The notes under the pieces: generated by a model | Seen by the model: only the letters and a program-made list of their open reading frames with translations | What the model was told of the DNA's origin: nothing | Databases searched by the model: none | Program-made: the position numbers and the translations under genes | In this document: positions 5,061-62,083 of the stretch, piece after piece | How positions within the stretch are numbered: the stretch's first letter is position 1 | Layout: each line of letters opens with the position of its first letter | Source of the DNA: Squalus acanthias | Lineage: Eukaryota | Reading direction: 5' to 3' | Assembly (NCBI GenBank): GCA_030390025.1 | Contig: JASTWF010000048.1 | Span: 1,054,001 to 1,118,000 of the forward strand | DNA: 64,000 bases

Positions 5061-5093
5061 TTAATCAAACCTTTTCGCCATCTTTCCCGAGAA
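5061..5093 (-). CDS. TRBC: TCR beta constant exon 4, cytoplasmic tail (FSGKMAKRFD*)
   Basis: Strong acceptor ctttttcctttctcttccag, phase 0 matching the exon 3 donor, TAA at 5061-5063. Confidence 0.85.
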   Translation of the reverse strand, partial: FSGKMAKRFD

Positions 5094-8111: not shown

Positions 8112-8221
8112 CTTCACCTTGAGCACCAGGCTGGTGACCATGGCCATGTAAAGGATGCTCTTGAAGATTAGTAAAGTATAGGTTGTTCTCGCCACAAGTT
8201 GTTGCTTCCGCATCCGCTCCC
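8112..8221 (-). CDS. TRBC: TCR beta constant exon 3, connecting peptide and transmembrane (GERMRKQQLVARTTYTLLIFKSILYMAMVTSLVLKVK)
   Basis: tag acceptor and gtatga donor; YxLLxxKxxLY motif with the intramembrane Lys typical of TCR beta; phase 1 in, phase 0 out. Confidence 0.95.
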
Positions 8222-15757: not shown

Positions 15758-15775
15758 CGTCCGCTTCACAGATGC
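15758..15775 (-). CDS. TRBC: TCR beta constant exon 2, 18-nt hinge exon ((G)ICEAD) with the interchain Cys
   Basis: ttttttatttcttacag|GCATCTGTGAAGCGGACG|gtaag; phase 1-1; same size as mammalian TRBC exon 2. Confidence 0.88.
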
Positions 15776-19190: not shown

Positions 19191-19365
19191 CGGGTGCAAA
19201 AATACCTTTACACCACCACCCGGTCTTTACTCTGCACTGCAGTCAATAGTGGGCCGGAGCATAAAACCAGTATTGCACTCACCCTGGGGCGAGTTAGGTT
19301 AGAATTACCCCGCCCCCCATGAATGATCCCTGGCGCAGGTGATCCCAGGAACTGAAGAAACTCAC

Positions 19366-19701
19366 CCCTCTTATTGTGCGTTTTGACTTCCTGAGATTTC
19401 TCTTCCCCTTCTGCAGTGTAATGTGTCACTTTGCATGCATACTCATTGCGTCCCCATTCTGCCACGGGCACAGTTATCCTACTGACGACACTGTAGGAGT
19501 GGTCTGTGTCGTTAACCGGCTGGTCGGTCAAGACATTTTTCTCCTCGATCTTCTCCCTGTTCGCAGTCCAGGAGAACTTCACGTAGTCTGGGAAGAAGCC
19601 AGTGGCCAAGCAAACGATGGTGGCTTTCTTCCGTGCTTTAACCTCTTCCTCTGACGGGTCGAAAATGGTCACCGTCGGGTGCGTGACAACTTGACCTGGC
19701 T
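19366..19701 (-). CDS. TRBC: TCR beta constant exon 1, Ig C1 domain
   Basis: EPGQVVTHPTVTIFDPSEEE..KATIVCLATGFFPDYVKFSW..YSVVSRI.V...EW..Y.CKV; cag acceptor, gtgag donor; 336 nt, phase 1-1. Confidence 0.98.
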
Positions 19702-20189
19702 CTGTGGGAGGACAAAGCAAAACCACGTGTTATGATCGGGGGAGGGCTGAGGAATGAATTTCCCCGTGCGTTCGTTCTCCGGCACCGCCACTTTGGCGGA
19801 AAAAGAACATTTGTTTATTCAGCTGTTCTACCTTGAATTGCATCACAGCAAGCGCAATTTATTGGACAGTGATCAGATTGATTTGAGCGCAATGTTAAGG
19901 ATTCGAAAGAGGCTGATTAATGCAAATGCGATTATGAACATTTATTTATTCAACTGTTCATCGCTGGGTTGCAAGAGAGCAATTTCACATCCTCAGGAGT
20001 ATAAATCAACGATGTTGGTAAGGGCAGGCATTATACATACGTGGAACTGTGGCTATTTACTTTAAGATAACAGTCAAGAAATATTGCCAGTGACGCCCTT
20101 ATGTCAAGAATGCGCAAAGCAAAAAATGCAATGCAAAGATACCTTTATAATGTTTGATCGTCCATAAAAAGAAAACAAAATACAATAAA

Positions 20190-39129: not shown

Positions 39130-39181
39130 CTAACACTGTTAATCTGGTCCCGTAGCCAAAGTAAGATTCGTAGTTATTGCC
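39130..39181 (-). CDS. TRBJ: J segment 4, C-proximal (GNNYESYFGYGTRLTVL)
   Basis: FGxG motif, gtaag donor; 12-RSS at 39182-39209 CACACTA-12-GCAAAAAGA. Confidence 0.95.
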
Positions 39182-39986
39182 CACACTATAATGCCTCGTT
39201 GCAAAAAGAAACACCATCATATCTACACCGTGCCCAGAAGGGGACACCTCCCGTCGTTTACGAAAAGTTCACAGAATAATACAGCACAGAAGGAGGCCAT
39301 TAAGCCCATCAGGCCTCTGCTGGCTCTGTGAAAGAGCTATCCAATTAGTCACACTACCAGTCCCCACTCTTTCCCCATAGCCCTGAAAATGTTTCCATTT
39401 CAAGCATTTATTCAATTCCCTTTTGAAAGACAATATTGAATTGTTTACACAGCCCTTTCAGGCAATGCATTCCAGTCAAAACTAAAACCGTTCAGCAAGC
39501 TAAACCTCACTGATTAGGCCCCAGCTAGAATATCAGGTACAATTCTGCTACCACACTGCCAAGGCATTGGAGAGGGTGCACAGCAGATTTGCCAGAATTG
39601 TCCCAGGGATGAGGGGCTTCAAATATGTAGAGAGACCAGTGAAGTTGGAATTGCTCTCCTTAGAGCAGAGAAGGTTCGGGGGAGGATTACCAGAATGATC
39701 CCTGGGATGAGGGTCTTCAGTTATGTGGAGAGACTGGAGAAGCTGGGGTTGTTGTCCTTAGAGCAGAGAAGGTTAAGGGGGAGATTTACCTGAATGGTAC
39801 CAGGGATGAGGGACTTCAGTTATGTGGAGAGACTGGAGAAGCTGGGGTTGTTCTCCTTAGCGCAGAGAAGGTTAGGGGCAGGATTACCAGACTGGTAGCA
39901 GTGATGAGGGACAAGAGGTGACAGAAGATAAGACGTATTTATAATATGAAATACAGATTCATTGTACTGGGTATTTTACGACTCAC

Positions 39987-40044
39987 CTTGAACTGTTAAT
40001 CTGCTACCAGCTCCAAAATGCAAAGGGTTATAATTCCCTGTGCT
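39987..40044 (-). CDS. TRBJ: J segment 3 (STGNYNPLHFGAGSRLTVQ)
   Basis: FGxG motif, gtgag donor; 12-RSS at 40045-40072 CACCGCA-12-GCAAAAACG. Confidence 0.95.
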
Positions 40045-40609
40045 CACCGCATTATATTGCGTTGCAAAAACGGCATGACATTATCCATCTATCAGTTTTA
40101 AATGGTCTCCTAGATCCAAACCAACTCTGATGTGCATCACCCGAGTCCTACTCCGCATGATCCCGGCCGACACTCCAAGTGACAGTACTGAGAGGAAAGG
40201 GGACGTAGTGCATGAGGGGAAGGAAAGGGAGTCAGAGGCAGAAGGTAAAATAGAGACATAGAGCGAGTGGGAGACAAAGAGAAAGGGAGAAGCAGAGAGA
40301 GACCGAATAGGAAAGGGCCGTAGAGAAAGAGGGGAGAAAGATGGGGACACAGTGGAAGCCATAGAATAGGAAGGTTCGTCGAGAAGAGCGGGATAAAGAT
40401 GGACAGAAAGAGAGGCAGAATAGGAAAGGGATGTGGAGAAAGAGGGGAGAGAGATGGGGACAGAGAGAGAGAGAGAACAGGAAAGGGATGTAGAGAAAGA
40501 GAGGACAAAGATGGGGACAGTTAGAGACAGGAATGACATGGAGCGTAGAGAATGATGGACTTAAAGTCATAGGACTGGGAAGAAGCAGAGATAAAGTGAG
40601 TTCTCACAA

Positions 40610-42190
40610 GGCTGAGGGACTTCTGTCATGTGGAGAGACTAGTGAAGCTGGGATTGTTCTCCTTAGACCAGAGAATGTTAATGGGGAGATTTAACGGAGA
40701 TGTTCAAAATCATGAATGGTTTTGATACAGTAAATAAGGAGAACTGTTTCCAGGGGAAGAAGGGTCAATAACTAGAGGACACAGATTTAAGGTGATTGCC
40801 AAAACAACCAGAGGAAAAATTAGGATTTCTTTTAGTACAGCGAGTTGTGATCAGAAATGCACAAAATGAATGGTTGGTGGAAGCACATTCGATCGTAACA
40901 TCAAAGGGGAAATGGATAAATACTTCAAAGAAAAAATAAAATGCAGGGCGATGGGGAAAGAGCAGGGGTTGGGGGGAATGGAAGAAATTAGATAGCTCTT
41001 TCAAAGAGTCGGCACAGGCACGATGGGCCGATTAAGAACAGAAGAACATAAGATATATGAGCTGGAGCAGGCCATTTGACCCTTCGAGCCTGCTCCGACA
41101 TTCAATAAGATCATGGCTGATCTTTTACCTCATTTAAAGAGTGTGCAGGGACAGGGGGACCTGGGAGTTAATGTGCATAGGTCCTTGAAGGTGGCCGGGA
41201 CATATTGAGAGAGTGTTTAACAAAGCATATGCATTCTTGGGCTTCATAAAGAGAGGTATTGAGTACAAAAGTAGAGATGTAAGGCTGAACTTTTATAAAG
41301 CGCTGGTTACGCCACAACTGGAGTACTGTGTCCAGTCCTGGTCATCACACTTTAGAAAGGATGTGAAGGCCCTTGAGAGGGTGCAGTAGAGATTTACCAG
41401 AGTGGTTCCGGGGATAGGGAATCCTAGCTACAAGGGCAGGTTGGAGAAGCTGGATTTGTTTACATTAGAGCAAAGCCGGTTGGGGGGTGATTTGATAGAT
41501 GTGTACAAGAATATGACGGGTTTGGATAGGCTAGAAGGGGGAAAGACTGTTCCCACTAGTTGATGGTACAAGGACTAGGGGACACAGATTTAAGGTTCTG
41601 GGCAAAAGATACAGGGGGGTATGTGATGAAAAACTTCTTTACGCAGCGAGTGGTGAGGACCTGGAACTCGCTGCCGACGGAAGTGGTGGAAGTGGAGACA
41701 CTCAAAGTTTTCAAGGGGAGACTGGATAGGCACTTGAGGGAACTAAACTTGCAGTGCTACGGGGATAGAGCGGGGGAATGGGACTGACTGGATTACTCTA
41801 CAGGGGGCCGGCACGGAGTCGATGGGCCTAATGACCTCCTTCTGTGCCGTTATGACTCTATGACTCTATCTGCACTTTATTGAACTATTTCCATATCCCT
41901 TGATTCCCTTAATATTCCAAAATCGATCGCTCTCTGTCTTGAATATACTAAACGACTGAGCCTCCACAGCCCTCTGGGGTAGAGAATTCCAAAGATTCAC
42001 CACCCTCTGAGTGAAGAAAGTTGTCCTCATCTCAGTCCTAAATGGCCGACCCCTTATTCTGAGACTGTGACCCCTGATTCTAAACTCCCCAGCGAGGGGA
42101 ATCATCCTCCCTGCATCTACCCTGTCAAGCCCTGTAAGAATTGTGTATATTTCAATGAGATCACCACTCATTCTCTAAACTCTGGAGAAT
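40610..42190. mobile_element. CR1 fragments between J2 and J3
   Basis: ORFs 41560-41787 (+) and 41866-42171 (-). Confidence 0.8.
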
Positions 42191-42360
42191 GGTCTCCCTC
42201 TGTCCTGCATCATTCTATGATTCTATGACTCTATAAGGCGGGATGCTACATGAAGCGGCGGTGGGTGGGATGAGAGATTCCCTCTGGTCAGACGCGGTAA
42301 ACACGGAGATATTATGGTCTGTACTACCCCCTTTTCACCGCCGACTCGTCTCCAACTTAC

Positions 42361-42409
42361 CCAGAACGGTGAGCCGGGTCCCATCTCCGAAGGTAGCTGG
42401 ATCATTGTC
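42361..42409 (-). CDS. TRBJ: J segment 2 (DNDPATFGDGTRLTVL)
   Basis: FGxG motif, gtaag donor; 12-RSS at 42410-42437 CACAGTG-12-ACTGAAACT. Confidence 0.95.
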
Positions 42410-43139
42410 CACAGTGAGACAAGCCTGCACTGAAACTGTCTCTGTAGTTTCTCGCCCTGCGATTCGGGAAAGGGTGTCATCCGGATAGAATCCTGTGCGG
42501 ATGTGCGCTGGGACGGGAAGCCCAGCGGCCTGCCTGGTCCCGCCTGTCCTGGCAGTGGAGGTGCCTATGGCACCGGGCCGTCTCGGTGTCGGGAGAAGGG
42601 GTTGAGTTCTGTCTGAGAAGGGCAGGCGGATGGCGGAGTTATTGCACGGGTCGGGCACTGCAATGTAACAAGGTGCGATACTGATTGCCCACGTTATTAC
42701 ATCGCAGTTCACAAACACCGCGGGGTCTCTGTGATTCCTGTGGGCTCATCAGTCCCTTCAGTTTTGCAACAGACAGCGGTGATCCCGACTCTCTCACTCA
42801 CACGGTATAGCCGAAAATCAATCCGACATCCCGGCCGTGTGAACCCACACCCGACCCAATAACATTCAGTGTAGCCAAGCATCCACAATCTTTTTTTCCC
42901 ATCTCTCTCCTTTCCCCGCTTCCCTCTCCCCAATCTTAAATGTATATTTTACTCGTCTCCCTTTCTTCTCCAATCACCGTCTTTGTCCCTCTCTCTCTAA
43001 GACACACCATTATCTGTCTTTCTATCTCTCACTTTAATTTGTCCTTTAAATCATTCGTTTTTTTCTTTTTCGCGTTATTATCCCGTTGTAATTCTCTCGT
43101 TTTGATAAACACTTTCTCTCCACCATATTTTGCTCTCCT

Positions 43140-44460
43140 TCTCTCTGTGTAACTCCTTCTCTCTCTCTCTCTCTGTCTCTCTCTCTCGCTCTCTCTGACT
43201 CTGCGTCTCTTTCTCTAACTCTCTGTCTCTCTCTCTAACACTGTCCCTCTCTCCCTTGCTCTATCTCCGTTTTTCCTCTCTCTCTATCTGTCTATCTCTG
43301 TCTCTGTCTGTCTCTCACTGTCTATCGGTCTCTGAATCTCTCTCTCTGTCTCTCTCTCTCTCTCTAACTGGGTACTTCTGTCCCTTTCTCTTCCCCCCTT
43401 TATCTCTCTCCCTTTCTTTGTCTCACTTTCTCTCTATCTCAGTCGCTCACTGTTCCTCTAGCTAGCTATTTGTCTCTCGGCCTCTCTGTCTCTCTCTCTC
43501 TCTCTGTCTATCAATATCTCTCTCTCTTTATCCATCTCTGTCTCTAGATATATATGTATCTGTCGTTTTCGCTGTCTCACTGCCTTAACTTTTTCTGTCT
43601 GTATGTCTGTCTCTTTCTCTCGCTATATATCTAACTCTATTTCTCTCCCTCTTACTCTCTCTGCCCATCTCTCTTGATATCTTTGTCACAGTATCTCTCA
43701 GTCTGTCTCTCTATCACTCTGTCTCTCTGCCCCTCTCCATTTATATATTTATCGTTGTGTCTTTCAGTCTCTGTCTCTCTATCTCTTTCTCTGCCCCTCT
43801 CAATTTATATATTTGTCACAGTATCTCTCAGTCCCGGTCTCTGTCTCACCCTGTCTCTCTCTCTGACCCTCTCCAATTATTTATTTTTCACAGTATCTCA
43901 CAGTCTCTGTCTCTCTCTCTCTCTCTCTCTCTGCCCCTCTCCATTTCTATATTTGTCACAGTATCTCTCAGTCTCTGTCTCTCTATCTCTCTCGCTCTGC
44001 CCCTCTCCATTTATATATGTCTCACAATATCCCTTCAGTCTCTGTCTCTCTCCTTCTCTCTCTCTCTCTCTGCCCCTCTCCATTTATATAATTGTCACAG
44101 TATCTCTCAGTCTCTGTCTCTCTATCTCTCTGTCTCTCTGCCGCTCTCCAATTATAAATTTGTCACAGTATCTCTCAGTCTCTGTCTCTCTATCTCTCTT
44201 TTTACCTCATTCATTTTCTCTCTCTCTGCCCCTCTCCATTTATATAATTGTCACAGTATCTCTCAGTCTCTGTCTCTCCATCTCTCTCTTTTTCTCTCAT
44301 TCATTCTCTCTCTCTCTCTCTGCCCCATCCATCTTTCTCTCTGTCACAGTCTCTCCCTCCATTTCTCTCTCTCTCTATCTGCCACGCTCACTCTCTGTCT
44401 CTCTCTCTCTCTTTTCTCTAAATCTCTCTCATTCTCTCACCCTCCCATCACTCTCTCTCC
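43140..44460. repeat. CT-rich low-complexity/minisatellite tract
   Basis: Repeated gtcacagtatctctcagtctctgtctctc units; produces spurious SLSL ORFs. Confidence 0.9.
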
Positions 44461-44631
44461 TTCATACCAAATCTCTGATGAAGCAGTAACGCTGAGACTT
44501 CGACAACCCCTCGCTCCCCAATTAAGCCAGATCTTCCAATCGCCCTTTTTGTTAAATCAAAACTTGAAATTGGAAGGGTCCATCGCCACTGACCCACTCC
44601 AGTTCATTTCAACGTAAGTTGGCGGACTCAC

Positions 44632-44677
44632 CTAAAACGGTCAGCCTGGTCCCGCTTCCGAAGTGCTGCTCAGCATT
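44632..44677 (-). CDS. TRBJ: J segment 1, D-proximal (NAEQHFGSGTRLTVL)
   Basis: FGxG motif, gtgag donor; 12-RSS at 44678-44705 CACAGTG-12-ACACGAACT. Confidence 0.96.
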
Positions 44678-44947: not shown

Positions 44948-44961
44948 GTTGTTGCTGTCCC
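44948..44961 (-). CDS. TRBD: D segment GGGACAGCAACAAC
   Basis: Flanked by a 5' 12-RSS and a 3' 23-RSS; GGGACAG start shared with the conserved vertebrate TRBD1; open in all three frames. Confidence 0.95.
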
Positions 44962-50990: not shown

Positions 50991-51607
50991 TTCATGTCTC
51001 TCTCTCCCTGTCTGTGGGCATCAGAGTCATTGGGTATGTGTTACATTCAGGCCACCTAAACTGTGCCCATTCAGCTTGCGTAACTGGGAACAGCACCTCC
51101 CGGAGACAAGGCCCATCGTTTCACTGTTTCATCAGAGATAGACGCCTCACTCTGTGCTCTCAGTTTCGTCCTAACCCGTCCGTCCGTCCGATTCGAGATG
51201 ATAGACAGACACGNNNNNNNNNNNNNNNNNNNNNNNNNNNNNNNNNNNNNNNNNNNNNNNNNNNNNNNNNNNNNNNNNNNNNNNNNNNNNNNNNNNNNNN
51301 NNNNNNNNNNNNNNNNNNNNNNNNNNNNNNNNNNNNNNNNNNNNNNNNNNNNNNNNNNNNNNNNNNNNNNNNNNNNNNNNNNNNNNNNNNNNNNNNNNNN
51401 NNNNNNNNNNNNNNNNNNNNNNNNNNNNNNNNNNNNNNNNNNNNNNNNNNNNNNNNNNNNNNNNNNNNNNNNNNNNNNNNNNNNNNNNNNNNNNNNNNNN
51501 NNNNNNNNNNNNNNNNNNNNNNNNNNNNNNNNNNNNNNNNNGACAGATAGTCAGAGAGAGGGAGACAGACAGCACTATTTCCCACAGGTGTTTCCTGCCC
51601 CCTTTGG

Positions 51608-51646
51608 GGTTTTTGTAGAGCTCCTTCATCTCTCTGAGTCACTGTG
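51608..51646 (-). other. 23-RSS of V-A1 (CACAGTG-23-ACAAAAACC, consensus)
   Basis: Exact heptamer, spacer length and nonamer. Confidence 0.97.
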
Positions 51647-52262
51647 AAGACTCCAGGCGCAGTAATACACTGGCCGAGTGATTTGCCCGCAGGCTGGCGG
51701 ACTCCAGGTAAAAGTGGGTGTCGTCGGGTCTCCTGGCGGTGAAACCGTCCACTTGATCGGAGGGAGTGACCATTTGCTTGTAGTTGGAATAGAAAAGGTT
51801 CTGAGGCTCGCGGTCAGGATGCCAGCGGTACCAGTAGAAATAGGAGCTAGCTGCTGCTTCTGTGTAAAGGCACTCGATGCTCACCGGAGTGCCCGGGGAT
51901 TTGGATATGGAAGCGGGTGTCTGTTGGATCAGCACGGCCCCCACATCTGTAAAACAGATAAAGAGAGAGAGAATAAATCCATTGTCAAATTACCCATAGA
52001 CACCGCTAAGAAGGGGCGGACGAGCGGAGAGAGAATGAGGGAGAGAGGGGCCGAGAGAGGCCGCGAGAAAAAGCAGAATGGAGTGAGAGAGTGAGAGAGA
52101 GCGGGAAGGACAGAGAGAGAGAGAATGAGATACAGAAAGAGATAAACCTAGCGACGATTACACATGGATAGGGGACGAGAAGGAGTACACGAGGAGAGAG
52201 CGATAGAAAAGTGAAAGAAAGAGACAGAGACAGAGAGACATAGAGACAAAGAGAGACACACA

Positions 52263-52294
<32 letters not shown>

Positions 52295-52660
52295 TGTGTA
52301 ATACAAATAGACAGTCAGGCAGTAAGACAGTAAAGAGAGAGACAGACAGACTGAGATACAGAGACAGAGAGGCAGAGAGAGAGACAGAGAGAGAGAGCTA
52401 GGAAGAGAGACAGACAGAGATATCGAGACAGAGAGCGAGAGACAGAGAGAGATAGAGAGCGAAAGAGACAGGCAGAAAGAGCAAACTGTAAACCGAGGGA
52501 CCGAGCCTCAACACCAAGCCGTGGAGTGAAGGAGCCCACGAGGCGGTTAATCCCAAAGGGGACACACGGGGTAATAACAGTGAGGATGACTGAAACTCAC
52601 AGCCCAGCTCACCTTACCCGTTAACACCAGCAACACAACCCAGAGCTGAGACACAGCCAT
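51647..52660 (-). pseudogene. TRBV: V segment A1 (family A, D-proximal): leader 52618-52660, V exon 51647-51946, +1 frameshift before YYC
   Basis: Leader MAVSQLWVVLLVLT; DVGAVLIQQTP..IEC..YFYWYRW..; one extra base at 51671 relative to paralog A2 (300 vs 299 nt). Could be an assembly error, as it is ~130 nt from a gap. Confidence 0.85.
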
Positions 52661-52694
52661 CTGTGGAGGGAGAAAGATCCGAGTGTTTATGCTG

Positions 52695-52704
52695 TGATGT
52701 CACT
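52695..52704 (-). promoter_or_regulatory. V-beta promoter decamer AGTGACATCA (CRE-like)
   Basis: Exact match to AGTGAYRTCA, 35 nt upstream of the ATG; GC boxes, CCAAT and ETS motifs at 52790-52860. Confidence 0.75.
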
Positions 52705-52964
52705 GAGCCGTTTTATTGCAGAACATCTCAAAGCTCTGAGCACTGACTGGAACTTACTGTCCCCTCCTCTCCGATGTTAAACTTGCGGATGGGCGGGGCC
52801 AATCTCTCTTCACTTGTTCCTTGGCTTCCACATCGTGACTGGTCATTTCCGGGGCGGGGATAATGAGGATCCCGGGTAATCCCTTTGACGGCGGAGTCTG
52901 CTGTACTTTAAATCTGCCACAACCCCGAGGCGAGTGAGGGAGTGAGTAAAGGGAGTTATACTCC

Positions 52965-53142
52965 CTGCCCCTACACTTGCTTAAAAATCTGTTACATCTC
53001 CAACGTTTTCCAGTTCTGACGAAGGGTCATCGACCTGAAACGTTAATTATTTTTCTCTCTCTACAGATGCTGTCTGACCTGCTGAGCATTTCCAGCATTT
53101 TCTGCTTTGATTCCACATTTTCAGCATCCGCAGTATTTAGCG
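52965..53142 (+). mobile_element. Penelope pseudo-LTR with intact hammerhead core (53012-53048)
   Basis: Near-identical to 46845-47025; absent from the paralogous position near 60655; gggagttata on both flanks. Confidence 0.8.
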
Positions 53143-53524
53143 TTTGTGTAGGGAGTTATACGGTCTGTCTGACTCATTCTGTATCGAAACAATGAATGAG
53201 GGGCTGCACTCGGAGACTAACCATAGAGCGAAGAGGCTTTACTCTGTATGTAACTGCTCTCACTGTATCTAATCCCGTGCTGTCCCTGTATCTAACCCGT
53301 GCTGCCCATATATCCAGCACCTGCAGTCCCTGTATCGAACCCCTGCTGTCTCTGTATCTAACGCCTACTCTCCCTGTAACTAACCTGTGCTGATTCTGTA
53401 TCTGAAGCGTGGTGTCCCTATATATAACTCGTGCTGCCCATTCTCACCGCCCTCCCTCTGAGTGAACATCACACCCAACGATACAGCGACTGGTTTGGTC
53501 CTTAGGCCCGGACTCAGCGCACAC

Positions 53525-53563
53525 GGTTTTTGTTGCACTGCCCCGGCTCCTTGTGTCACTGTG
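53525..53563 (-). other. 23-RSS of V-B1 (consensus)
   Basis: CACAGTG-23-ACAAAAACC. Confidence 0.97.
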
Positions 53564-53859
53564 ACGCCGCCACGCGCAGTAATACACCCCCGTGTGGTTC
53601 GCTCGCAGGCGGGACGTTTGGAGGTGAAAGTTGGAGTCGTCGGATCTAGAGGCGGTGAAGCCGTCCACCTCTCCCGCCGGGTCGATGCGGTCGGTATTGG
53701 GAGAGTAGAAAAGCAGCAGGAGCTCTCCGTCTGGGAGCTGGCGGTACCAGGAAAACACTGAATCGAAGCTGCTCTCTGCAGAACAGCGGATCTGCAGCGG
53801 CGAGTGCAGAGAATCGGAGATTACAGGCGGACTTTGCTGAACTTTGCCGCCCGCTACAA
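53564..53859 (-). CDS. TRBV: V segment B1 (family B), V exon, apparently intact
   Basis: VAGGKVQQSPPVISDSLHSPLQIRC..FSWYRQ..LLFYS..GFTASR..GVYYCAWRR; open frame, both Cys and the Trp present, cag acceptor. Confidence 0.93.
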
Positions 53860-53910
53860 CTGCGAATATTAGGAAAATGATTCGGTTAAAACAGGGGGCC
53901 GTTCACAGTC

Positions 53911-54298
53911 ATAGAATCATAGAAACATAGAAGATAGGAGCAGGAGTAGGCAATTCGGCCCCTCGAGCCTGCTCCGCCATTCAATGCGATCATGGCTGAT
54001 CATCCAAATTCATTGCCCTGTCCCTGCTTTCTCCCCATATCCCTTGATTCCCCTTAGCCTCAAGAAATATATCTAACACCTTCTTGAATATATTTAATGA
54101 ATTTGCATGAACTGCCTTCTGTAGTAGAGAATTCCACAGGTTCACCACTCTCTGGGTGAAGAAATTCCTCCTCCTCTCAGTCCTAAATGGCTTACCCCTT
54201 ATTCTTAGACTGTGACCCCTGGATCTGGACTCCCCACCATCGGAACATCCTTCCTGTATCTAGTCTGTCGAGTCCTGTTAGAATTTTATAAGTTTCAA
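53911..54298 (-). mobile_element. CR1 3' fragment inserted in the V-B1 leader intron
   Basis: CR1 tail sequence; absent from the paralogous intron near 62000. Confidence 0.9.
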
Positions 54299-54341
54299 TG
54301 TCGGAGGCAAACCGCGCCAAGCAATGCCGACGGAGACTTAC

Positions 54342-54384
54342 TGTGCAACAGCAGCGCAGACACAAGACACCGGGTTAAATGCAT
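54342..54384 (-). CDS. TRBV: Leader exon of V-B1 (MHLTRCLVSALLLH)
   Basis: ATG, hydrophobic core, gtaag donor, phase 1, 43 nt. Confidence 0.85.
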
Positions 54385-54485
54385 TTTTTTTCAAAGTTTG
54401 CACCAGAGAATCAGGCCGGGAATATTGTTAAAAAATCTGCTCTCCCGGCAGCTGCGTGGCGGCTTTATGTAACGGCAGTTCTGTT

Positions 54486-54565
54486 TGATTGACAGCTGCT
54501 GGCCGCACACTCCAGACCCCGCCCCCTTACAGGCTGATTGACAGCTGTCGACTTAACCCCGCCCC
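54486..54565. promoter_or_regulatory. Family-B V promoter module: 2 x (TGATTGACAGCTG + GC box)
   Basis: TGATTGACAG at 54486 and 54535, also at 62182 and 62230 in the paralog. Confidence 0.55.
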
Positions 54566-55839
54566 TCCCAGCTTCTCTCGACACTTCACGTCACTGAAGT
54601 CCTCATCCCTGCTACCATTCTGGTAAATCTCCCCTGCAGGCTCTGTCTGGCCTCGACATCCTTCCGAAGGCGCGTTGATCAGGTTTGGGCTCACTTTTCT
54701 AGCTGGGGCTGGAGAAAAGCCTTTTTCAATTGTACAACATGAAAACAAGAACGAACTATGTTGTGGAGCAAGCTCGTGCTCAATTCGATTCTGACACGGC
54801 ACCAGAAATAAAACAGTAAATTGGACAAAATTGAAATACATCGTGGTGGTAAAATGCAATCCGGCGGGGTGCTGGTTTCGCAAACAGTTCCGGTTCAGTT
54901 TAAAATCCGCTCCGGTTTGATTGGCAAAGTGTCAGACCCGGAAGTTGCATCAAACATTTGCAATCGCCCCGAGAGCAACTAAACACAATTAGCAGCAAAT
55001 AAATTAAATTGGGTCACAGAATTCAACATCTGATTTTGATGATGTTTGAATCGTTACAGAATTATTGNNNNNNNNNNNNNNNNNNNNNNNNNNNNNNNNN
55101 NNNNNNNNNNNNNNNNNNNNNNNNNNNNNNNNNNNNNNNNNNNNNNNNNNNNNNNNNNNNNNNNNNNNNNNNNNNNNNNNNNNNNNNNNNNNNNNNNNNN
55201 NNNNNNNNNNNNNNNNNNNNNNNNNNNNNNNNNNNNNNNNNNNNNNNNNNNNNNNNNNNNNNNNNNNNNNNNNNNNNNNNNNNNNNNNNNNNNNNNNNNN
55301 NNNNNNNNNNNNNNNNNNNNNNNNNNNNNNNNNNNNNNNNNNNNNNNNNNNNNNNNTTGTTTGTCTTTCATTCTTTGTCTCTCTCTTTTTGTCTTTCTTT
55401 CCTCATTCATTTTTTATGACTTTTTTGTCATTCTTTCTTAGTTGCTTTCTCTCCGAGGCTCCGTGTGAGATCGTAGAAATGGTGAGGTGGATAAACAACT
55501 TCTGTCTCCCTCAAATTCCACATTCTCAACACTCTCCGTGTCATTAGTTTTTTTCCTGAATTCCTCTTTTTTATTGTTGTAGTGACTATCTTACATACGT
55601 TGCTCCTATTTTGAATCAATCCCACAAGTAGAAACACAATCTCTACGTCTACCCTATCAAAGCCTTCCATAATCTTAAATTAATCAAGTGTGGTCTAACA
55701 ACGCTATATGGAGACCAGCACTGTGTCCGGTATTCTAAGTGAGGACTAACCAAGTTACATGGAGATTAGAACTGAGTGCTGAGCTCTGATCTCTGAATCC
55801 TCTGTAAACTTACACAAATCAGAGGGCAGCTCGCCCGAG

Positions 55840-56605
55840 GATTTTTGTCGAGGCGGCGGATGACTCTGAACCTCCACGGTCCTCGTAATGGCAAACCGGC
55901 TCCCAAAACCCTCTCCATACTGAGCTTCACTGCTTAAATAATTATAAATGAGAAGTCGCACAACACCAGGTTATAGTCTAACAATTTTATTTAAAATTAC
56001 GAGCTTTCGGAGCTTTTGCCCCTTCGTCAGGTAAAGGTACAGTGAGGGAATCGGTTACACAGTATATAAACACAGAAAGCAATTTGTCTGCCGAGATACA
56101 ATCTTTCAGGGAGGCATTACATCAAAGACACACCAGAGCATAGCCAAGACAATGAGATGTGTCACAGGGGGTCCAACGTGTCAAATCCTGCCGTCTGCAG
56201 TTGAGCTTGTCACTTTTTTTTGGTTTTTTTGGGGGGGTTTGTGTTTTTTTTTTAAACTGGAAAGACAGACAACGATGTCGAGTCACGTTCTGTAGCGTGA
56301 CATGAACCCGAGATCCCTATTGAGGCCGAAACAGCTCCGAAAGCTCGTAATTTTAAATAAAACTGTTGGACTATAACCTGGTGTTGTGCGACTTCTCAGT
56401 TTTGTACACCCCAGTCCAAAACCGGCATCTCCGCATCATAAATAAATAGACCCGATGTAGGTGAATCCTTGTCCAGCGGATTGCCGATACCACAGCATGT
56501 TATTGCGGGCTGTTCCATTCAGATAACAATTTAATTCATCCTCTCCTCGCGGATCAACAGTAATCGAAGGCGGCGACTGATGGATCTCATCCGCCAGCGG
56601 ACAGT
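55840..56605 (-). pseudogene. TRBV: V segment C (third family), disrupted by an insertion and a 3' deletion
   Basis: DEIHQSPPSITV..LNC..MLWYRQSAGQGFTYIGSIY / NYLSSEAQYGEGFGSRFAITR; no YYC or heptamer, but nonamer ACAAAAATC remains at 55840-55848; no AG acceptor at the expected place. Confidence 0.9.
55950..56441 (-). mobile_element. 5'-truncated Penelope-like insertion with inverted terminal arms and a hammerhead (55997-56034)
   Basis: Same arms as the 37391 element; internal GLNRDLGFMSRY C-terminus on the minus strand; TSD ATAAAT. Confidence 0.85.
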
Positions 56606-57309
56606 TGGAAAAAGAGACGGCAGAGATGATTTTAAAAATCGGATGTAATTGAGAAACTCGATTGGCTTTTCAAATTAAGCCCGGGGCTGGCAAGCCGGCA
56701 CTGTGGAGCCGCCGATTCCCAAACACCTGTTAAAATCAACCCAATAATTCTGGGATTATCACCAAATGAACAACATAATGGCGATTATCCTACAGTTAGT
56801 CAAGAAAGAACGAGATTCTGCAAACTTAAATTGTAATAAAAATCTATGCATCAATAAATAATAAAACAGCTAAAATAACATTAAACGCCTTAAGTTTTGG
56901 TAGATTAAAATAAATTATCTATTTAAATATTTGATTGCTAGAGAGTCGCTAATTTTTATACATGTGTAAAATCCAAGGTCAGAACCGGAAGTTGCGTAGG
57001 TAAACAGAACGCACGAGCTTGCATTTCTAAAGCACTTTCACGACCTCAGAACGTCCCAAAGCGTTTTGCTTCCAATGAAGTACTTTTGAAGTGTAGTCGC
57101 GTTCATAATATAGGAAGCTCGGCAGCTCAATCCGCGCAGAGGCAGGTCCCACAAAGCGCAACGTGATACGTCAAAAGGTAATTTGCTTTTAAGTGATTTT
57201 GTTTCAGGGAAACATATTGGCCAGGACAACGGGAGAAATAAGAAACAGTGTGCGTGCGAAACTTTACGTCCACCTGAGAGGGCAAACAGGGCCTAGGTTT
57301 AATTGCTCC

Positions 57310-57590
57310 CTCACTACTGCCACTCTGAAAGTGCAGTGCTCCCTCTGAACCAGCCCTCCGACAATGCAGCGCTCACTCGGCACTGCACCTCCGACAGTGC
57401 AGCACTACCTCAGCACGACCCCTTCGACAGTGCTGCATTTCCATCAGTACTGCCTATTTGACATTGCAGCATTTCCATCAGTACTGACTCTCCAACAGTG
57501 CAGCATTCCATCAGCACAGACCCCCGACAGTGCAGCGCTCTATCAGTACTGCCCTCCGTCAGTGCAGCATGATACGGAGTGCACTGTCTG
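57310..57590. repeat. ~33-nt minisatellite (actgcccctccgacagtgcagcactccctcagt-like)
   Basis: About 8 degenerate tandem units. Confidence 0.8.
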
Positions 57591-59119
57591 AAAATGCGAT
57601 GGAAGTAAATTAAATAATACGTTTCAAATAGGAATTGGCTATACATTTGAAAACGAACATAAATTAAGTGCTATTGGATAAGAGCAGGGGTTGGGACTGT
57701 TTGTATAGGGGAGACCAAAACTCGTGGTCATAAATATACCCTAGTCACGAATACATATGCAAGGGAATTCAGGTGCACTCTACTTACTCAAAGAGCGGTG
57801 AGAATATTTCACTTTTTACCACTAGGAGTGGTTGAAGTGAATAGCATAGATGCATTGAAAAGGAAGCTATATAAGCACAGGCGTGATAAAATAATCGAAG
57901 GATTTGCTGATTGGATGAGATGAAAAGTGCTGGAAGGTGTATCATGTGGAACTAATTGGATAGCTCTTTCTAACAGCCGGACCGAGATCAATGGGCCGAA
58001 TTGCCTCCTTCTGTGCTGTACAATTAATGATTATATAAACCACTGAACATTGTTGCTTCAAAGTTCCCTCCAGTTTCAGGCAGTGCTAGTTTGAGTTCCC
58101 ATGCGCTGAACGAGAATTAAAGGCTTACATTCTTCGCGGGGCTGCACTCCGAGATTCTTTGAAAAATAAATCAAATGGCATCAAGAGTCTGATAGACAGG
58201 TTGGTTAACGGTTTTAAACAGACACTCAAACATCTATCAGGAGGCAGGTGTTCCAGTGAGAAACGGATCTGGAGCAGCATCTCGTCTTTGCACAGGGTGA
58301 AACATCGATCACACGGTTAAGGGTTCTAAGATGAACAGTTTGTTATTTGTATGGGAATGTGCCCCTCAGAGCAGAGAAGGGTAAGGGGAGATTTGAAAGA
58401 GCTGTTCAAAAGCAGGAATATTTTTCAAGGATTAAGTATGCAGAAACTGTATCCAGTGTCAGGAGGGTCGATAATCAGAGGAGGCAGATTAGGGTAATTG
58501 ACAAAAGAGCCAGAGGGCGAGATGAGTCGAATCTTTCTCCTCAGTGAATTGTTCTGATCTGGAATGCGCTGTCTGAACGGGTGGTGAAGCAGATTCAATA
58601 GTATTTTTTGAAAAGGGATTTGGATAAATACTTGATGCGGAATTATATTCAGTGCTATGGGGATCGGGTCAAGCGATTGTGACCAATTGGATAGCTCCTT
58701 CAAAAATAACGCACAATGGACCGAATGGCCTTCCTCTGTGCTATATCATTCTATGATTCTATGATAATCAGCGCATCTCTCGGCGCTATTGCGATAGCGC
58801 AATTAACAGGAGAGATAAGTACCTCCTCCGATAGCGTGAGCTTGGGAACTATTCCCTGGTATAATCGGGAGCTTTTCGTAATTCCTTCCCATTATCCTAC
58901 GGCCGTTCTTTCAACACTAACACTAACCCATTTACCCCACCTCATAATCTGTTGTTAAAATGTAGATGAAAGGACATTCGAAAGGTTAAACAGGATTTTT
59001 AATAATTAATAATTTATCGTAATGATCTGCAGCGAAAGAGACTAAGAAGATGAATCAGTATGAATAAAAAAGTAATCCTTGATAACACATTTATTTGAAC
59101 GGTATGATTAAAGAATAGC

Positions 59120-59340
59120 GATAGATAGATGAGAAAACTCTAGATAGATAGATGATAGATAGATAGATATTGAGATAGAACGATCACAGCTGGATAGATA
59201 GATCGATGACAGATCGATGGATAGATGGGAGATGGATAGAGAGATAGATAGTTAGATAGATCGATAGACAGACTGACAGACAGGCAGATAGATGGATAAA
59301 TGCGTAAAGAGACACACAAACAGACTCACAGACAGACAAC
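59120..59340. repeat. (GATA)n/(GACA)n degenerate microsatellite
   Basis: Seen directly in the sequence. Confidence 0.9.
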
Positions 59341-59383
59341 GAGACAAATCTGTCTTCCACGGTTATTTTCCGCCGCCTTTTGG

Positions 59384-59422
59384 GGTTTTTGTTGAGCTCC
59401 TCCATCTATCTGAGTCACTGTG
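59384..59422 (-). other. 23-RSS of V-A2 (consensus)
   Basis: CACAGTG-23-ACAAAAACC. Confidence 0.97.
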
Positions 59423-59721
59423 CAAACTCCAGGCGCAATAATACACGGCCGAGTGATTCGCCCGCAGACTGGTGGACTCCAGGTAGAAGTGGGTATCGTC
59501 GGGTCTCCTGGCGGTGAATCCATCCACCTCACCAGAGGGAGTGACCACTGTGAGGACGTTAGAATAGAAAAGGTTTTCAGGCTCCCTGTTGGAATTCCAG
59601 CGGTACCAGTAGAAATAGCTTAAACCTGTGGCTTTTGTGTAAAGGCACTCGATGCGAACTGGCGTGCCCGGAGCATTGGATATGGAAGGGGGAGTCTGTT
59701 CGATCAGAGCGGCTCGCACAT
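59423..59721 (-). CDS. TRBV: V segment A2 (family A), V exon, apparently intact
   Basis: DVRAALIEQTPP..IECLY..YFYWYRW..LFYS..GFTARRPDDTHFYL..AVYYCAWSL; open frame, cag acceptor. Confidence 0.95.
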
Positions 59722-60285
59722 CTGTAAAACAGAGAAAGAGAGAGATTGATAGATTAAACAAGGGAGACATTGCATGCAGACAACCACCATGAAGGGTCAG
59801 AGCAGGGGAGAGAGAAAGTGAGAGCGAGAGGGGGCGAGAGAGGCAGAGAGACACAGCGAGATGGAGAGAGAGCCAGAGGCAAGGACAGAGAGAGAATGAG
59901 ATACAGAAGGTAAACGAGGGAAAATCTACACATCGACAGAGGACGAGAAGGAGCACACGAGGAGAGAGCGGTAGAAAAGAGAAAGAAAGAAAGAGAGGCA
60001 CAAAGACAGAGAGACATAGAGACAATGAGAGAAAGACTCACAAAGAGAGAGAGTGAGACACAAGGAAATATAAACGGACAGGCCGTAAGACAGACTGAGA
60101 GAGATACAGCGTCAGAGAGAGAGAGTGCGGCAGAGAGAGTGAGAGGCAGAGAGATGGAGACAGACAGACAGAGAGCAATATATAAACGGAGGTAGAGAGA
60201 ATCTACACCCGCCCGCGGTGTGAAGTGACACATGGGGAAATAAAAGTGAGGGTCGCTGGAATCTCACAGCCCAGCTCCACCTTAC

Positions 60286-60328
60286 CCGTTAACACCAGCA
60301 ACACAACCCAGAGCTGAGACGCAGCCAT
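60286..60328 (-). CDS. TRBV: Leader exon of V-A2 (MAASQLWVVLLVLT)
   Basis: ATG, gtaag donor, phase 1, 43 nt. Confidence 0.9.
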
Positions 60329-60362
60329 CTCTGGGGGTAGAAATATCCGAGTGTTTATGGTG

Positions 60363-60372
60363 TGAAATCACT
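60363..60372 (-). promoter_or_regulatory. Variant V-beta decamer AGTGATTTCA
   Basis: Same position as the A1 decamer; one mismatch to AGTGAYRTCA. Confidence 0.55.
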
Positions 60373-60719
60373 GGGCCGTTTTATTGTAGAATATCTCAAA
60401 GTCTGGGCACTGCGTGGAATTTACTCTCCCATCCTCTCCAATGTAAACATTTTCGGATGGGAGGGGCCAATTTCTCTTCACTTGTTCATTGACTCCCACA
60501 TCGGGCTGGTCATTTCCGGGGCGGTGCTAATGAGGAACCCGGGTAATCGGCGGCCTGTCTCCTCCCTTTGATGACGGAGTCGGGCGTCCTTTATACCTGC
60601 AACAACCCCGAGGTGTCATCTGAGATGCCACTGATGGTGAGGGATTGAGAAAAGGGAGTTATACTGTCTGTCTGACTCATTCTGTGGAATTAAACTGCAT
60701 CGAATCAGTGAGTGACGAT

Positions 60720-61525
60720 CTTTATTCTGTATCTAACCAGGGAGTGAGGGACTTTACTCTGAGTCTAACCATTGAGACAATGGCTTTACTTGGTATCTAA
60801 TCCTTGAGTGATGGACTTTTCTCTGTATCTAACCAGTGATTGATGGGCTTCACACTGTATCTGACCAGTATATGATGGGATTCACTCTGTAACTAATAAA
60901 TAATTGATGGTCTTTAGTCTGTATCTAACCACTGGTTCATGGGCTTTAGTCTGTATCTAAGTAATGAATCATGGACATTCCTCTGTATCTAACTAATGGT
61001 TCATGGGCTTTACTCTGCATCCAACTAATGGATAACAGGGCTTTAATTTGTATCTCACCAATAAACGATGTGCTTCACTCTGTAAAATCATTGATTCATG
61101 GGCTCTATTCTGTATCTAATCCCTGTATCAATCAGGGCTGCCCATGTATCTAACCCGGGCTCTGACTTATCAAACCGTGTTGACCGGATATCTAACACGT
61201 GCTGCCCATGTAGTTAAGCAGTTCCGTTCCTGTATATATCCTGTAATGTCCGTGCTTCTAACCAGTGCTGTCCCTGTATCTAACGTGTGCTTTCCCTCTA
61301 TCTAGCTTGTGCTGTCCCTGTAACTAATCCATGCAACCCATATATTTAATCAGTCCAGTCACTGTACCTATCCCGTACTGTCCCTGCAACTAATGCGTGC
61401 TGTCCCTCTATCTAACGCGTGCTATCACTGCATCTTACCCGTGTTGTCCCAGTATGAAACCGGTACTGTCCCTGTATCTAACCCGAAATGACGTACTGTC
61501 CTGTATCTAACCTGTGCTGTCCCTT
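60720..61525. repeat. Degenerate ctgtatctaacc-core minisatellites (~22 and ~32 nt units)
   Basis: A shorter paralogous array lies at 53190-53440. Confidence 0.8.
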
Positions 61526-61631
61526 CTCACCCACCAAACACGCCCCTGCCGCCACCCTCCGCCGCTGGATTGACTCCACCCCCAGTAATGCAGCGACTGG
61601 TGCGGTCCTCAGCCCCGTGCTCTGCTGCACT

Positions 61632-62083
61632 GGATTTTGTTGCATCGCCCCGGCTCCTTGTGTCACTGTGGAGTCGCCTGGTGCGTTATTACATCCGTAT
61701 GATCCACTCGCAGGCGGGCCGTTTGCTTGTGGAATGTGGAGTCTTCGGGTCTAGAGGCGGTGAAGCCGTCTAGCTCTCCCGCCGGCTCGATGCTGTCGGA
61801 GATGCGAGAGTAAAAGAGCAGCAAGAGCTTTCCGTCTGGGAGCTGGCGGTACCAGGACAACTCTGACTTGAATAAACGGCTCTGCAGCGGCGAGTGCAGG
61901 GAATCGGAGATTACAGGCGGACTTTGCTGAACTTTGCCGCTCGCTAAACATGCGAATTGGAGGAAAATAATTTGGTTAAAGCAGGGGGCCGTTGACATTC
62001 GGAGCCAACCCGCATCCAAGTAATGCTGAGGGAGACTCACTGTGCAACAGCAGCGCAGAAACAAGATATCGGGTTAAATAGCA
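61632..62083 (-). pseudogene. TRBV: V segment B2 (family B) pseudogene; RSS 61632-61670, V exon ~61671-61949, leader 62041-62083
   Basis: ATG lost, acceptor AG changed to AT, ~15-nt deletion removing the first Cys, YYC destroyed; RSS CACAGTG-23-ACAAAATCC retained. Confidence 0.92.

Follow-up and report, generated by a model that had tools for sequence, protein, structure and literature searches.

V genes probably of the TRBV30 lineage in a tail-to-tail, two-unit T-cell receptor beta locus of the shark Squalus acanthias

Introduction

Mammalian TRBV30, mouse Trbv31 and opossum TRBV28 belong to an amniote clade of T-cell receptor (TCR) beta variable (V) genes that lie inverted and 3' of a constant (C) gene (PMC2275272, PMC11754216), an arrangement conserved across amniotes for no accepted reason. 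In PMC11754216, the inverted TRBV genes form a low-bootstrap clade with TREV as sister, nurse shark V genes are included in the tree without comment, and the current model, which invokes translocation, is proposed; several inverted TRBV genes have been described in tuatara and newt (PMC11754216, PMC12698447). Here we analyse V genes of the shark Squalus acanthias that were originally predicted, from a stretch of 64,000 nucleotides (contig JASTWF010000048.1 of assembly GCA_030390025.1, positions 1,054,001 to 1,118,000 of the forward strand; 'the window' below, meaning this whole stretch), to be expanded relatives of TRBV30/Trbv31. These genes are probably the diversity (D)-proximal segments of one half of a tail-to-tail, two-unit TCR-beta (TRB) locus, and likely represent an ancient TRBV30 lineage.

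TRB units that face in opposite directions have precedents. In bamboo shark, two opposite D-J-C units (J, joining) stand head to head, with outer V genes pointing inward (PMC10322711, supplementary file 16), and the same source lists C genes in both directions for sturgeon and J clusters in both directions for lungfish, in which the C strand labels conflict with those of J; no discussion of the opposite-unit layout was found in what was available of its main text. Salmonid units are also head to head, and the two inverted V genes kept by trout were explained by the authors as what is left of a unit now lost (PMC10464911). The squamate TRE locus is likewise a second TRB-like V-D-J-C unit, with V genes sister to inverted TRBV, but has been described as a squamate duplication that moved elsewhere (PMC11754216). 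We found no paper on a tail-to-tail shark TRB locus, on a second shark C-beta type or on a model in which inverted TRBV30 is a relic of a lost unit, subscription papers being outside the search. Horn shark work of the 1990s, or a paper on nurse shark, may already mention a likeness to human V-beta 20.

A tail-to-tail locus with two constant genes

The survey took in 1,862,875 of the contig's 2,278,436 bases, that is, all except 200-454 kb and 1918-2078 kb. Best protein matches, at 61-65%, come from catshark and bamboo shark, in keeping with a shark sequence. The window carries one D-J-C region on the minus strand (unit 2), and a second one lies on the opposite strand beyond window position 1 (unit 1). 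Their features are as follows, in window positions unless the contig is named (RSS, recombination signal sequence; Ig, immunoglobulin).

44948..44961, minus strand: D segment of unit 2 (D2), 14 nucleotides, with a 12-RSS on the V side and a 23-RSS on the J side
39130..44677 (lower limit approximate), minus strand: four J segments of unit 2, with FGxG and GT donors
19365..19703, minus strand: C2 Ig-domain exon, 39% identical to C1 and 60-61% to catshark C2-type proteins
15758..15775, minus strand: C2 hinge exon, with Cys
8112..8221, minus strand: C2 transmembrane exon, with conserved Tyr and Lys
5061..5093, minus strand: C2 cytoplasmic exon, ending RFD-stop
Contig 960540-1020484, plus strand: D-J-C of unit 1, in which D, J, Ig and transmembrane exons were found

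Unit 2 is complete as a TRB unit, with a D segment flanked by 12- and 23-RSS, J segments with a 12-RSS and FGxG, and a four-exon C gene with a Lys-bearing transmembrane segment. In unit 1, the D segment (D1) is of canonical type, its first 11 bases matching the conserved TRBD quoted in PMC11754216, and is followed by 35 J segments and by C1 (contig 1014591, plus strand), which stands 58 kb beyond C2 and, like it, has a transmembrane exon. At contig 971-1004 kb, a block of about five J of unit 1 is repeated in tandem. A search for a third C gene, with 150 candidates scored for each query, gave nothing further: at E<=1e-13 the sole hit of C1 was C1 itself, and C2 showed no close match besides its own.

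The V genes conform to this geometry. Among 344 V candidates in the surveyed DNA, 280 have an open frame from Cys23 to Cys104 (a few of these look frameshifted in framework region 1, FR1). The 121 open genes of the plus strand (the plus arm) are without exception left of D1, and the 159 of the minus strand (the minus arm) right of D2; none of the 344 points outward. Unit 1 thus runs from V genes at contig 4-952 kb through D1 and 35 J to C1, and unit 2, on the other strand, from V genes at 1105-2205 kb through D2 and four J to C2. A profile scan of contig 953-1105.6 kb for any V gene, intact or broken, found none, so that no lone inverted V gene stands next to either C gene. Looking beyond position 1 for an inverted V gene 3' of C, as had been suggested, therefore yielded no such gene but a whole V-D-J-C unit on the opposite strand. 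With C1 on the strand opposite to C2, V arms that point inward and no V between them, the locus reads V-D-J-C facing C-J-D-V.

Could this mirror arrangement be an artefact, the assembly having joined two haplotypes or two loci? We consider this very improbable. A long CT-rich tract between the C genes (contig ~1029-1044 kb) could hide a misjoin, but there is no run of 20 or more N between their 3' ends, the C genes are only 39% identical and the D and J segments differ. Both C types are also found on single catshark records, two catshark species carrying them on one scaffold or chromosome (as judged by equal record lengths, with adjacent locus tags in one species). A doubled haplotype in particular was rejected because identity between V genes of the two arms is at most 94.8% (medians 81-86%), no cross-arm pair reaching 98%.

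The second C gene appears to be expressed. In all four sequencing runs that were searched (from two studies, and presumed to be RNA), the C2 exon is covered exactly and the letters of the C2 hinge and transmembrane exons are joined to exon ends; a unit-2 J segment is joined in one. Among 17 C-bearing proteins that were compared, 14 are of C1 type and three are of C2 type; a horn shark protein labelled 'T-cell receptor homolog' is of C1 type. Catshark C2 has TCR beta constant clusters among its neighbours in the protein atlas, which does not separate the C1 and C2 types.

The bamboo shark locus is a close described match, with its two opposite D-J-C units, inward-pointing outer V arrays and a V family common to both arms. 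It differs in being head to head, with five V genes between the units, seven J in each and 35 V rows in the table (PMC10322711), whereas the Squalus acanthias locus is tail to tail, with no V between the units, 35 and four J and at least 280 open V genes. The double TRB locus of salmonids and pike also has two V-D-J-C units in opposite orientation, but these are head to head with V genes in the middle, and identity between paired C genes is 99% in trout (PMC10464911); here the units are tail to tail, no V lies between the D segments and C1 and C2 share 39% identity. Opposite-facing units as such are therefore known from bamboo shark; a stronger result than the lineage of the V genes is a double locus that is tail to tail and whose two constant genes are deeply diverged.

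The V genes of the window

Five V sequences lie in the D-proximal part of the minus arm that falls in the window.

51647..52660, minus strand: V gene A1, leader ATG at 52660, V exon 51647-51946, perfect 23-RSS from 51646, 1-bp frameshift before YYC
53564..54384, minus strand: V gene B1, intact, leader ATG at 54384, V exon 53564-53859, ending YYCAWR, perfect 23-RSS
~56430..56595 (approximate limits), minus strand: V pseudogene, 5' half only, 33.5 bits over positions 2-50 of the hidden Markov model
59423..60328, minus strand: V gene A2, intact, leader ATG at 60328, V exon 59423-59721, ending YYCAWS, perfect 23-RSS
61671..62083, minus strand: V pseudogene B2, lacking Cys23 and YYC, no leader ATG found, RSS kept

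The original prediction of four related V genes in two diverged families is borne out to this extent: four minus-strand V genes with a 23-RSS are present, and families A and B share a mean identity of 45%. Only B1 and A2, however, have all that a functional TRBV gene needs (a leader exon, an open V exon with Cys23, Trp41 and Cys104, and a 23-spacer RSS), A1 being frameshifted and B2 decayed, and the fifth fragment had been missed; a reading of its sequence would assign it to family 5, outside the TRBV30 lineage. The CAWS/CAWR endings on which the prediction relied are in frame in B1 and A2, but in A1 a 1-bp insertion just before YYC puts CAWS in a different frame from the remainder of the exon, and B2 has lost CAWR along with both cysteines (Cys23 and Cys104). 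Ala-Trp after Cys104 is thus found in three of the four genes, one of these out of frame. The extra base of A1, absent from all 27 readable sites among the 34 open A genes, may mark a pseudogene, an allele or an assembly error.

As predicted, these V genes are among the most D-proximal: A1, B1, A2 and B2 are the four RSS-bearing V genes closest to the window's D segment (A1 lies 6.7 kb from D2), and they have the same direction as D2, the four J and C2. Their supposed direct orientation is only half of the picture, since it holds for unit 2, whereas relative to C1 they are inverted and 3' of a C gene. Calling four genes an expansion was an understatement, the contig having 41 A-like and 41 B-like matches.

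Relation to TRBV30

Ala-Trp after Cys104 is taken as a diagnostic feature of the TRBV30 lineage. When open V genes were grouped at 60% identity, 17 families were obtained. The CAW ending is common to A (34 genes), B (15) and a third, C (71), whose mutual identity is 41-48%, against 20-36% with other families. A profile of the three retrieved 21 proteins out of 410 candidates, including entries from bichir, reedfish, turtle and crocodile that automatic annotation had named TRBV30. The trees were based on an alignment of 130 rows by 92 columns, trimmed after Cys104, which included a panel of other V domains (20 source proteins named). FastTree, run on all 130 rows, joined A, B and C with V genes of ray, sturgeon, bichir, caecilian, turtle and crocodile (Shimodaira-Hasegawa support 0.918), and placed a cyprinid V with a CAWS end outside this clade, so that Ala-Trp after Cys104 is not sufficient alone. 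A split holding A, B and reptile TRBV30 without outsiders was recovered in 67 and 81 of 100 bootstraps, and IQ-TREE (68 of the 130 rows) gave 94/98 to a wider clade that includes shark families 16 and 17. An approximately unbiased (AU) test rejected both the joining of all shark V genes in one clade (p=0.0009) and that of all bony-vertebrate TRBV in one clade (p=0.015).

Families 16 and 17 comprise 51 open V genes ending in CACS or similar and are possibly a further branch of the TRBV30 lineage. Three sturgeon V genes ending in CAG group with family A (80/95, with a bootstrap of only 42-48/100), their placement hinting that the split between A/B and C may also be older than sharks.

Scores against profiles and structures complete this comparison. 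The family-B profile finds 6/6 tetrapod TRBV30-type V genes at 51-67 bits, against 41.8 for the best other bony-vertebrate V. In the top 60 PDB matches of A2, as in those of the A/B/C profile, no single-V TCR chains appear other than Mel5 beta variants and 5xov_J; the crocodile sequence of the trees scores 94 bits on both the Mel5 beta chain and 5xov_J. Mel5 uses TRBV30 (PMC5887915), its beta chain matches the TRBV30 motifs named in the original prediction, and one example of a TRBV30 complementarity-determining region 3 is given in PMC5857646. PDB lists are crowded by multi-domain antibody chains, and gaps between human V families were visible only for a catshark protein that combines family C with C2, which scores 129.8-132.4 bits on human TRBV30 and 120.7 on the next beta chain. 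Human TRBV30 is thus tied to the shark genes via PDB scores alone.

Several points weigh on the other side. Mammalian TRBV30 is in none of the trees. The 34-row clade has a moderate bootstrap (55/100, or 65/100 with three extra columns), and IQ-TREE, run as it was on a subset of the rows, gives the exact clade 44/81. The AU test used 5000 replicates (10000 are advised) and short searches, and it leaves unrejected both a position of A and B outside the core group (p=0.25) and the monophyly of amniote TRBV (p=0.065). The family-A profile places 5/6 tetrapod TRBV30-type V genes at 30-36 bits, under the best outsider (43.7), a tetrapod profile gives A2 a score of 50, no better than the unrelated families 15, 4 and 3, and B1 alone finds no single-V TCR chain in its PDB top 60. 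Finally, no V-D-J joint was found in four runs mapped to window positions 51560-59760, a search that was swamped by repeats.

Some of these results would fit a different reading, in which A and B arose as side branches within sharks and resemble TRBV30 at no more than a few residues, its true counterpart being family C alone. Indeed, C ranks first among the 17 shark families with the tetrapod profile (median of 78 bits, compared with 65 for B and 55 for A), in line with the AU result for A and B outside the core. This reading nonetheless seems unlikely to us, since A, B and C are much closer to each other than to other families, the trees were made without the residues that follow Cys104, the cyprinid CAWS gene falls elsewhere and sturgeon V genes go with family A. 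We therefore favour A and B as likely derived branches of an old TRBV30 lineage, which, given the trees and the AU rejection of shark V and bony-vertebrate TRBV monophyly, would be older than the split between sharks and bony fishes. The age proposed originally is upheld in this form, with the provisos that support for the exact clade is moderate, that family A is weak and that C is closest; as for the grouping with TRBV30 in a framework tree, both programs recovered it, at moderate support, for reptile and fish TRBV30-type genes.

The shark genes resemble the amniote inverted TRBV genes in their probable V lineage, as judged from trees and PDB ranking, in having Ala-Trp behind Cys104, and in a position that is inverted and 3' of a C gene, C1 in the shark. 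They differ in being present in dozens of copies, in three families and on both arms, and are far from a single gene: A, B and C make up 120 of the 280 open V genes (43%).

Spread of the families along the two arms

Families A, B and C, which are also present in bamboo shark, account for 42 of the 121 open V genes on the plus arm and 78 of the 159 on the minus arm. A and B together contribute 33 of the 52 open V genes in the 355 kb nearest D2 and, at 818-889 kb, 10 of 14, but none of the 10 closest to D1; family C is distal on both arms and mixed across them. Plus-arm A genes form one clade nested within the diversity of minus-arm A genes, so that the A block was likely copied from the unit-2 side. 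We envisage that tandem duplication next to unit 2 expanded a block of A, B and family 5, which was likely copied, on a single occasion, to the other arm. Contig 1105000-1460000 is occupied by tandem copies of a ~12-kb block (families B, A and 5), with stops in many B copies and most A copies open.

Inverted matches of at least 1.5 kb between the arms number 716 (repeats counted), with a median identity of 85%, the longest 25 being 4-8.6 kb at 85-91%; the best matches between the two D-J-C regions reach 69-77% and are read as dispersed repeats. From this difference it follows that the movement of V blocks from arm to arm came long after the divergence of the C genes.

The 10 open V genes nearest D1 (contig 890780-952138) are all outside the TRBV30 lineage. 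Among them are members of families 2, 6, 7, 8 and 9, which are found only on the plus arm in the surveyed DNA and could serve as markers of rearrangement across units.

Rearrangement and the origin of the inverted gene

Productive V-D-J joining obeys the 12/23 rule. Judging from the geometry of their RSS, B1 and A2 would join D2 and J2 of unit 2 by deletion and could join D1 and J1 of unit 1, 145 kb from A1, by inversion, the latter being the route used by mammalian TRBV30. Unlike amniote TRBV30, the shark genes would also have a deletional route because a whole D-J-C unit stands between C1 and them. The choice left by the original prediction, between a gene relocated in mammals and genes moved in sharks, misses the two facing units: no relocation is needed, since the window V genes are already inverted and 3' of C1 in a two-unit locus.

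If such a locus lost D2-J2-C2, what remained would be V-D-J-C with an inverted TRBV30-type V behind it, as in amniotes, and it is this economy that makes it plausible, though less likely than not, that mammalian TRBV30 is the relic of a lost second unit. A wider scenario, which we offer tentatively and hold to be rather doubtful as a whole, is that two mirror-image TCR-beta units, differing in their C genes, were present in early jawed vertebrates. Sharks would have kept both, including a transcribed second C-beta that perhaps marks a separate alpha-beta T-cell subset, while amniotes would have lost one D-J-C, the inverted TRBV30/Trbv31 being the last V gene of the lost unit and squamate TRE possibly a surviving descendant.

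The published alternative (PMC11754216, Fig. 9) starts from one translocon and has one V family duplicated at a later time and placed in inverted orientation 3' of C; the facing units would then be a separate shark event, and A and B would say nothing about the mammalian position. We regard it as a serious contender, at somewhat less than an even chance. V blocks do move between arms here, as the inverted matches and the mixing of family C attest, and this traffic is the same inverted V duplication that the published model requires, a point that counts against the relic reading, as does the closer relationship of family C. So does the lack of any bony-vertebrate C2 orthologue among seven non-shark-type C domains compared, which are 25-38% identical to C1 or C2. 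Unit orientation also varies among fishes, with bamboo shark and salmonids head to head and bichir in tandem. Against the one-translocon model, the tables of PMC10322711 list opposite units with inward outer V genes for bamboo shark and, going by the strand of J, lungfish, and C genes in both directions for sturgeon, so that an opposite-facing layout recurs on both sides of the shark/bony-vertebrate split; moreover, the two inverted V genes of trout were interpreted by the authors themselves in terms of a lost unit (PMC10464911).

Implications

If the relic reading is right, two facing shark units offer an origin for inverted TRBV30 that is different from translocation and testable. Whatever its origin, the TRBV30 lineage as delimited here is no orphan in this shark but a major part of a large germline repertoire. 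On a practical note, since a second, diverged C-beta exists and the horn shark protein is of C1 type, primers to one C gene would miss part of the shark repertoire.

Near the end of the contig, after a long GA-rich tract, an open frame of 676 codons (contig 2274226-2276253) has a start that resembles a retroviral envelope protein.

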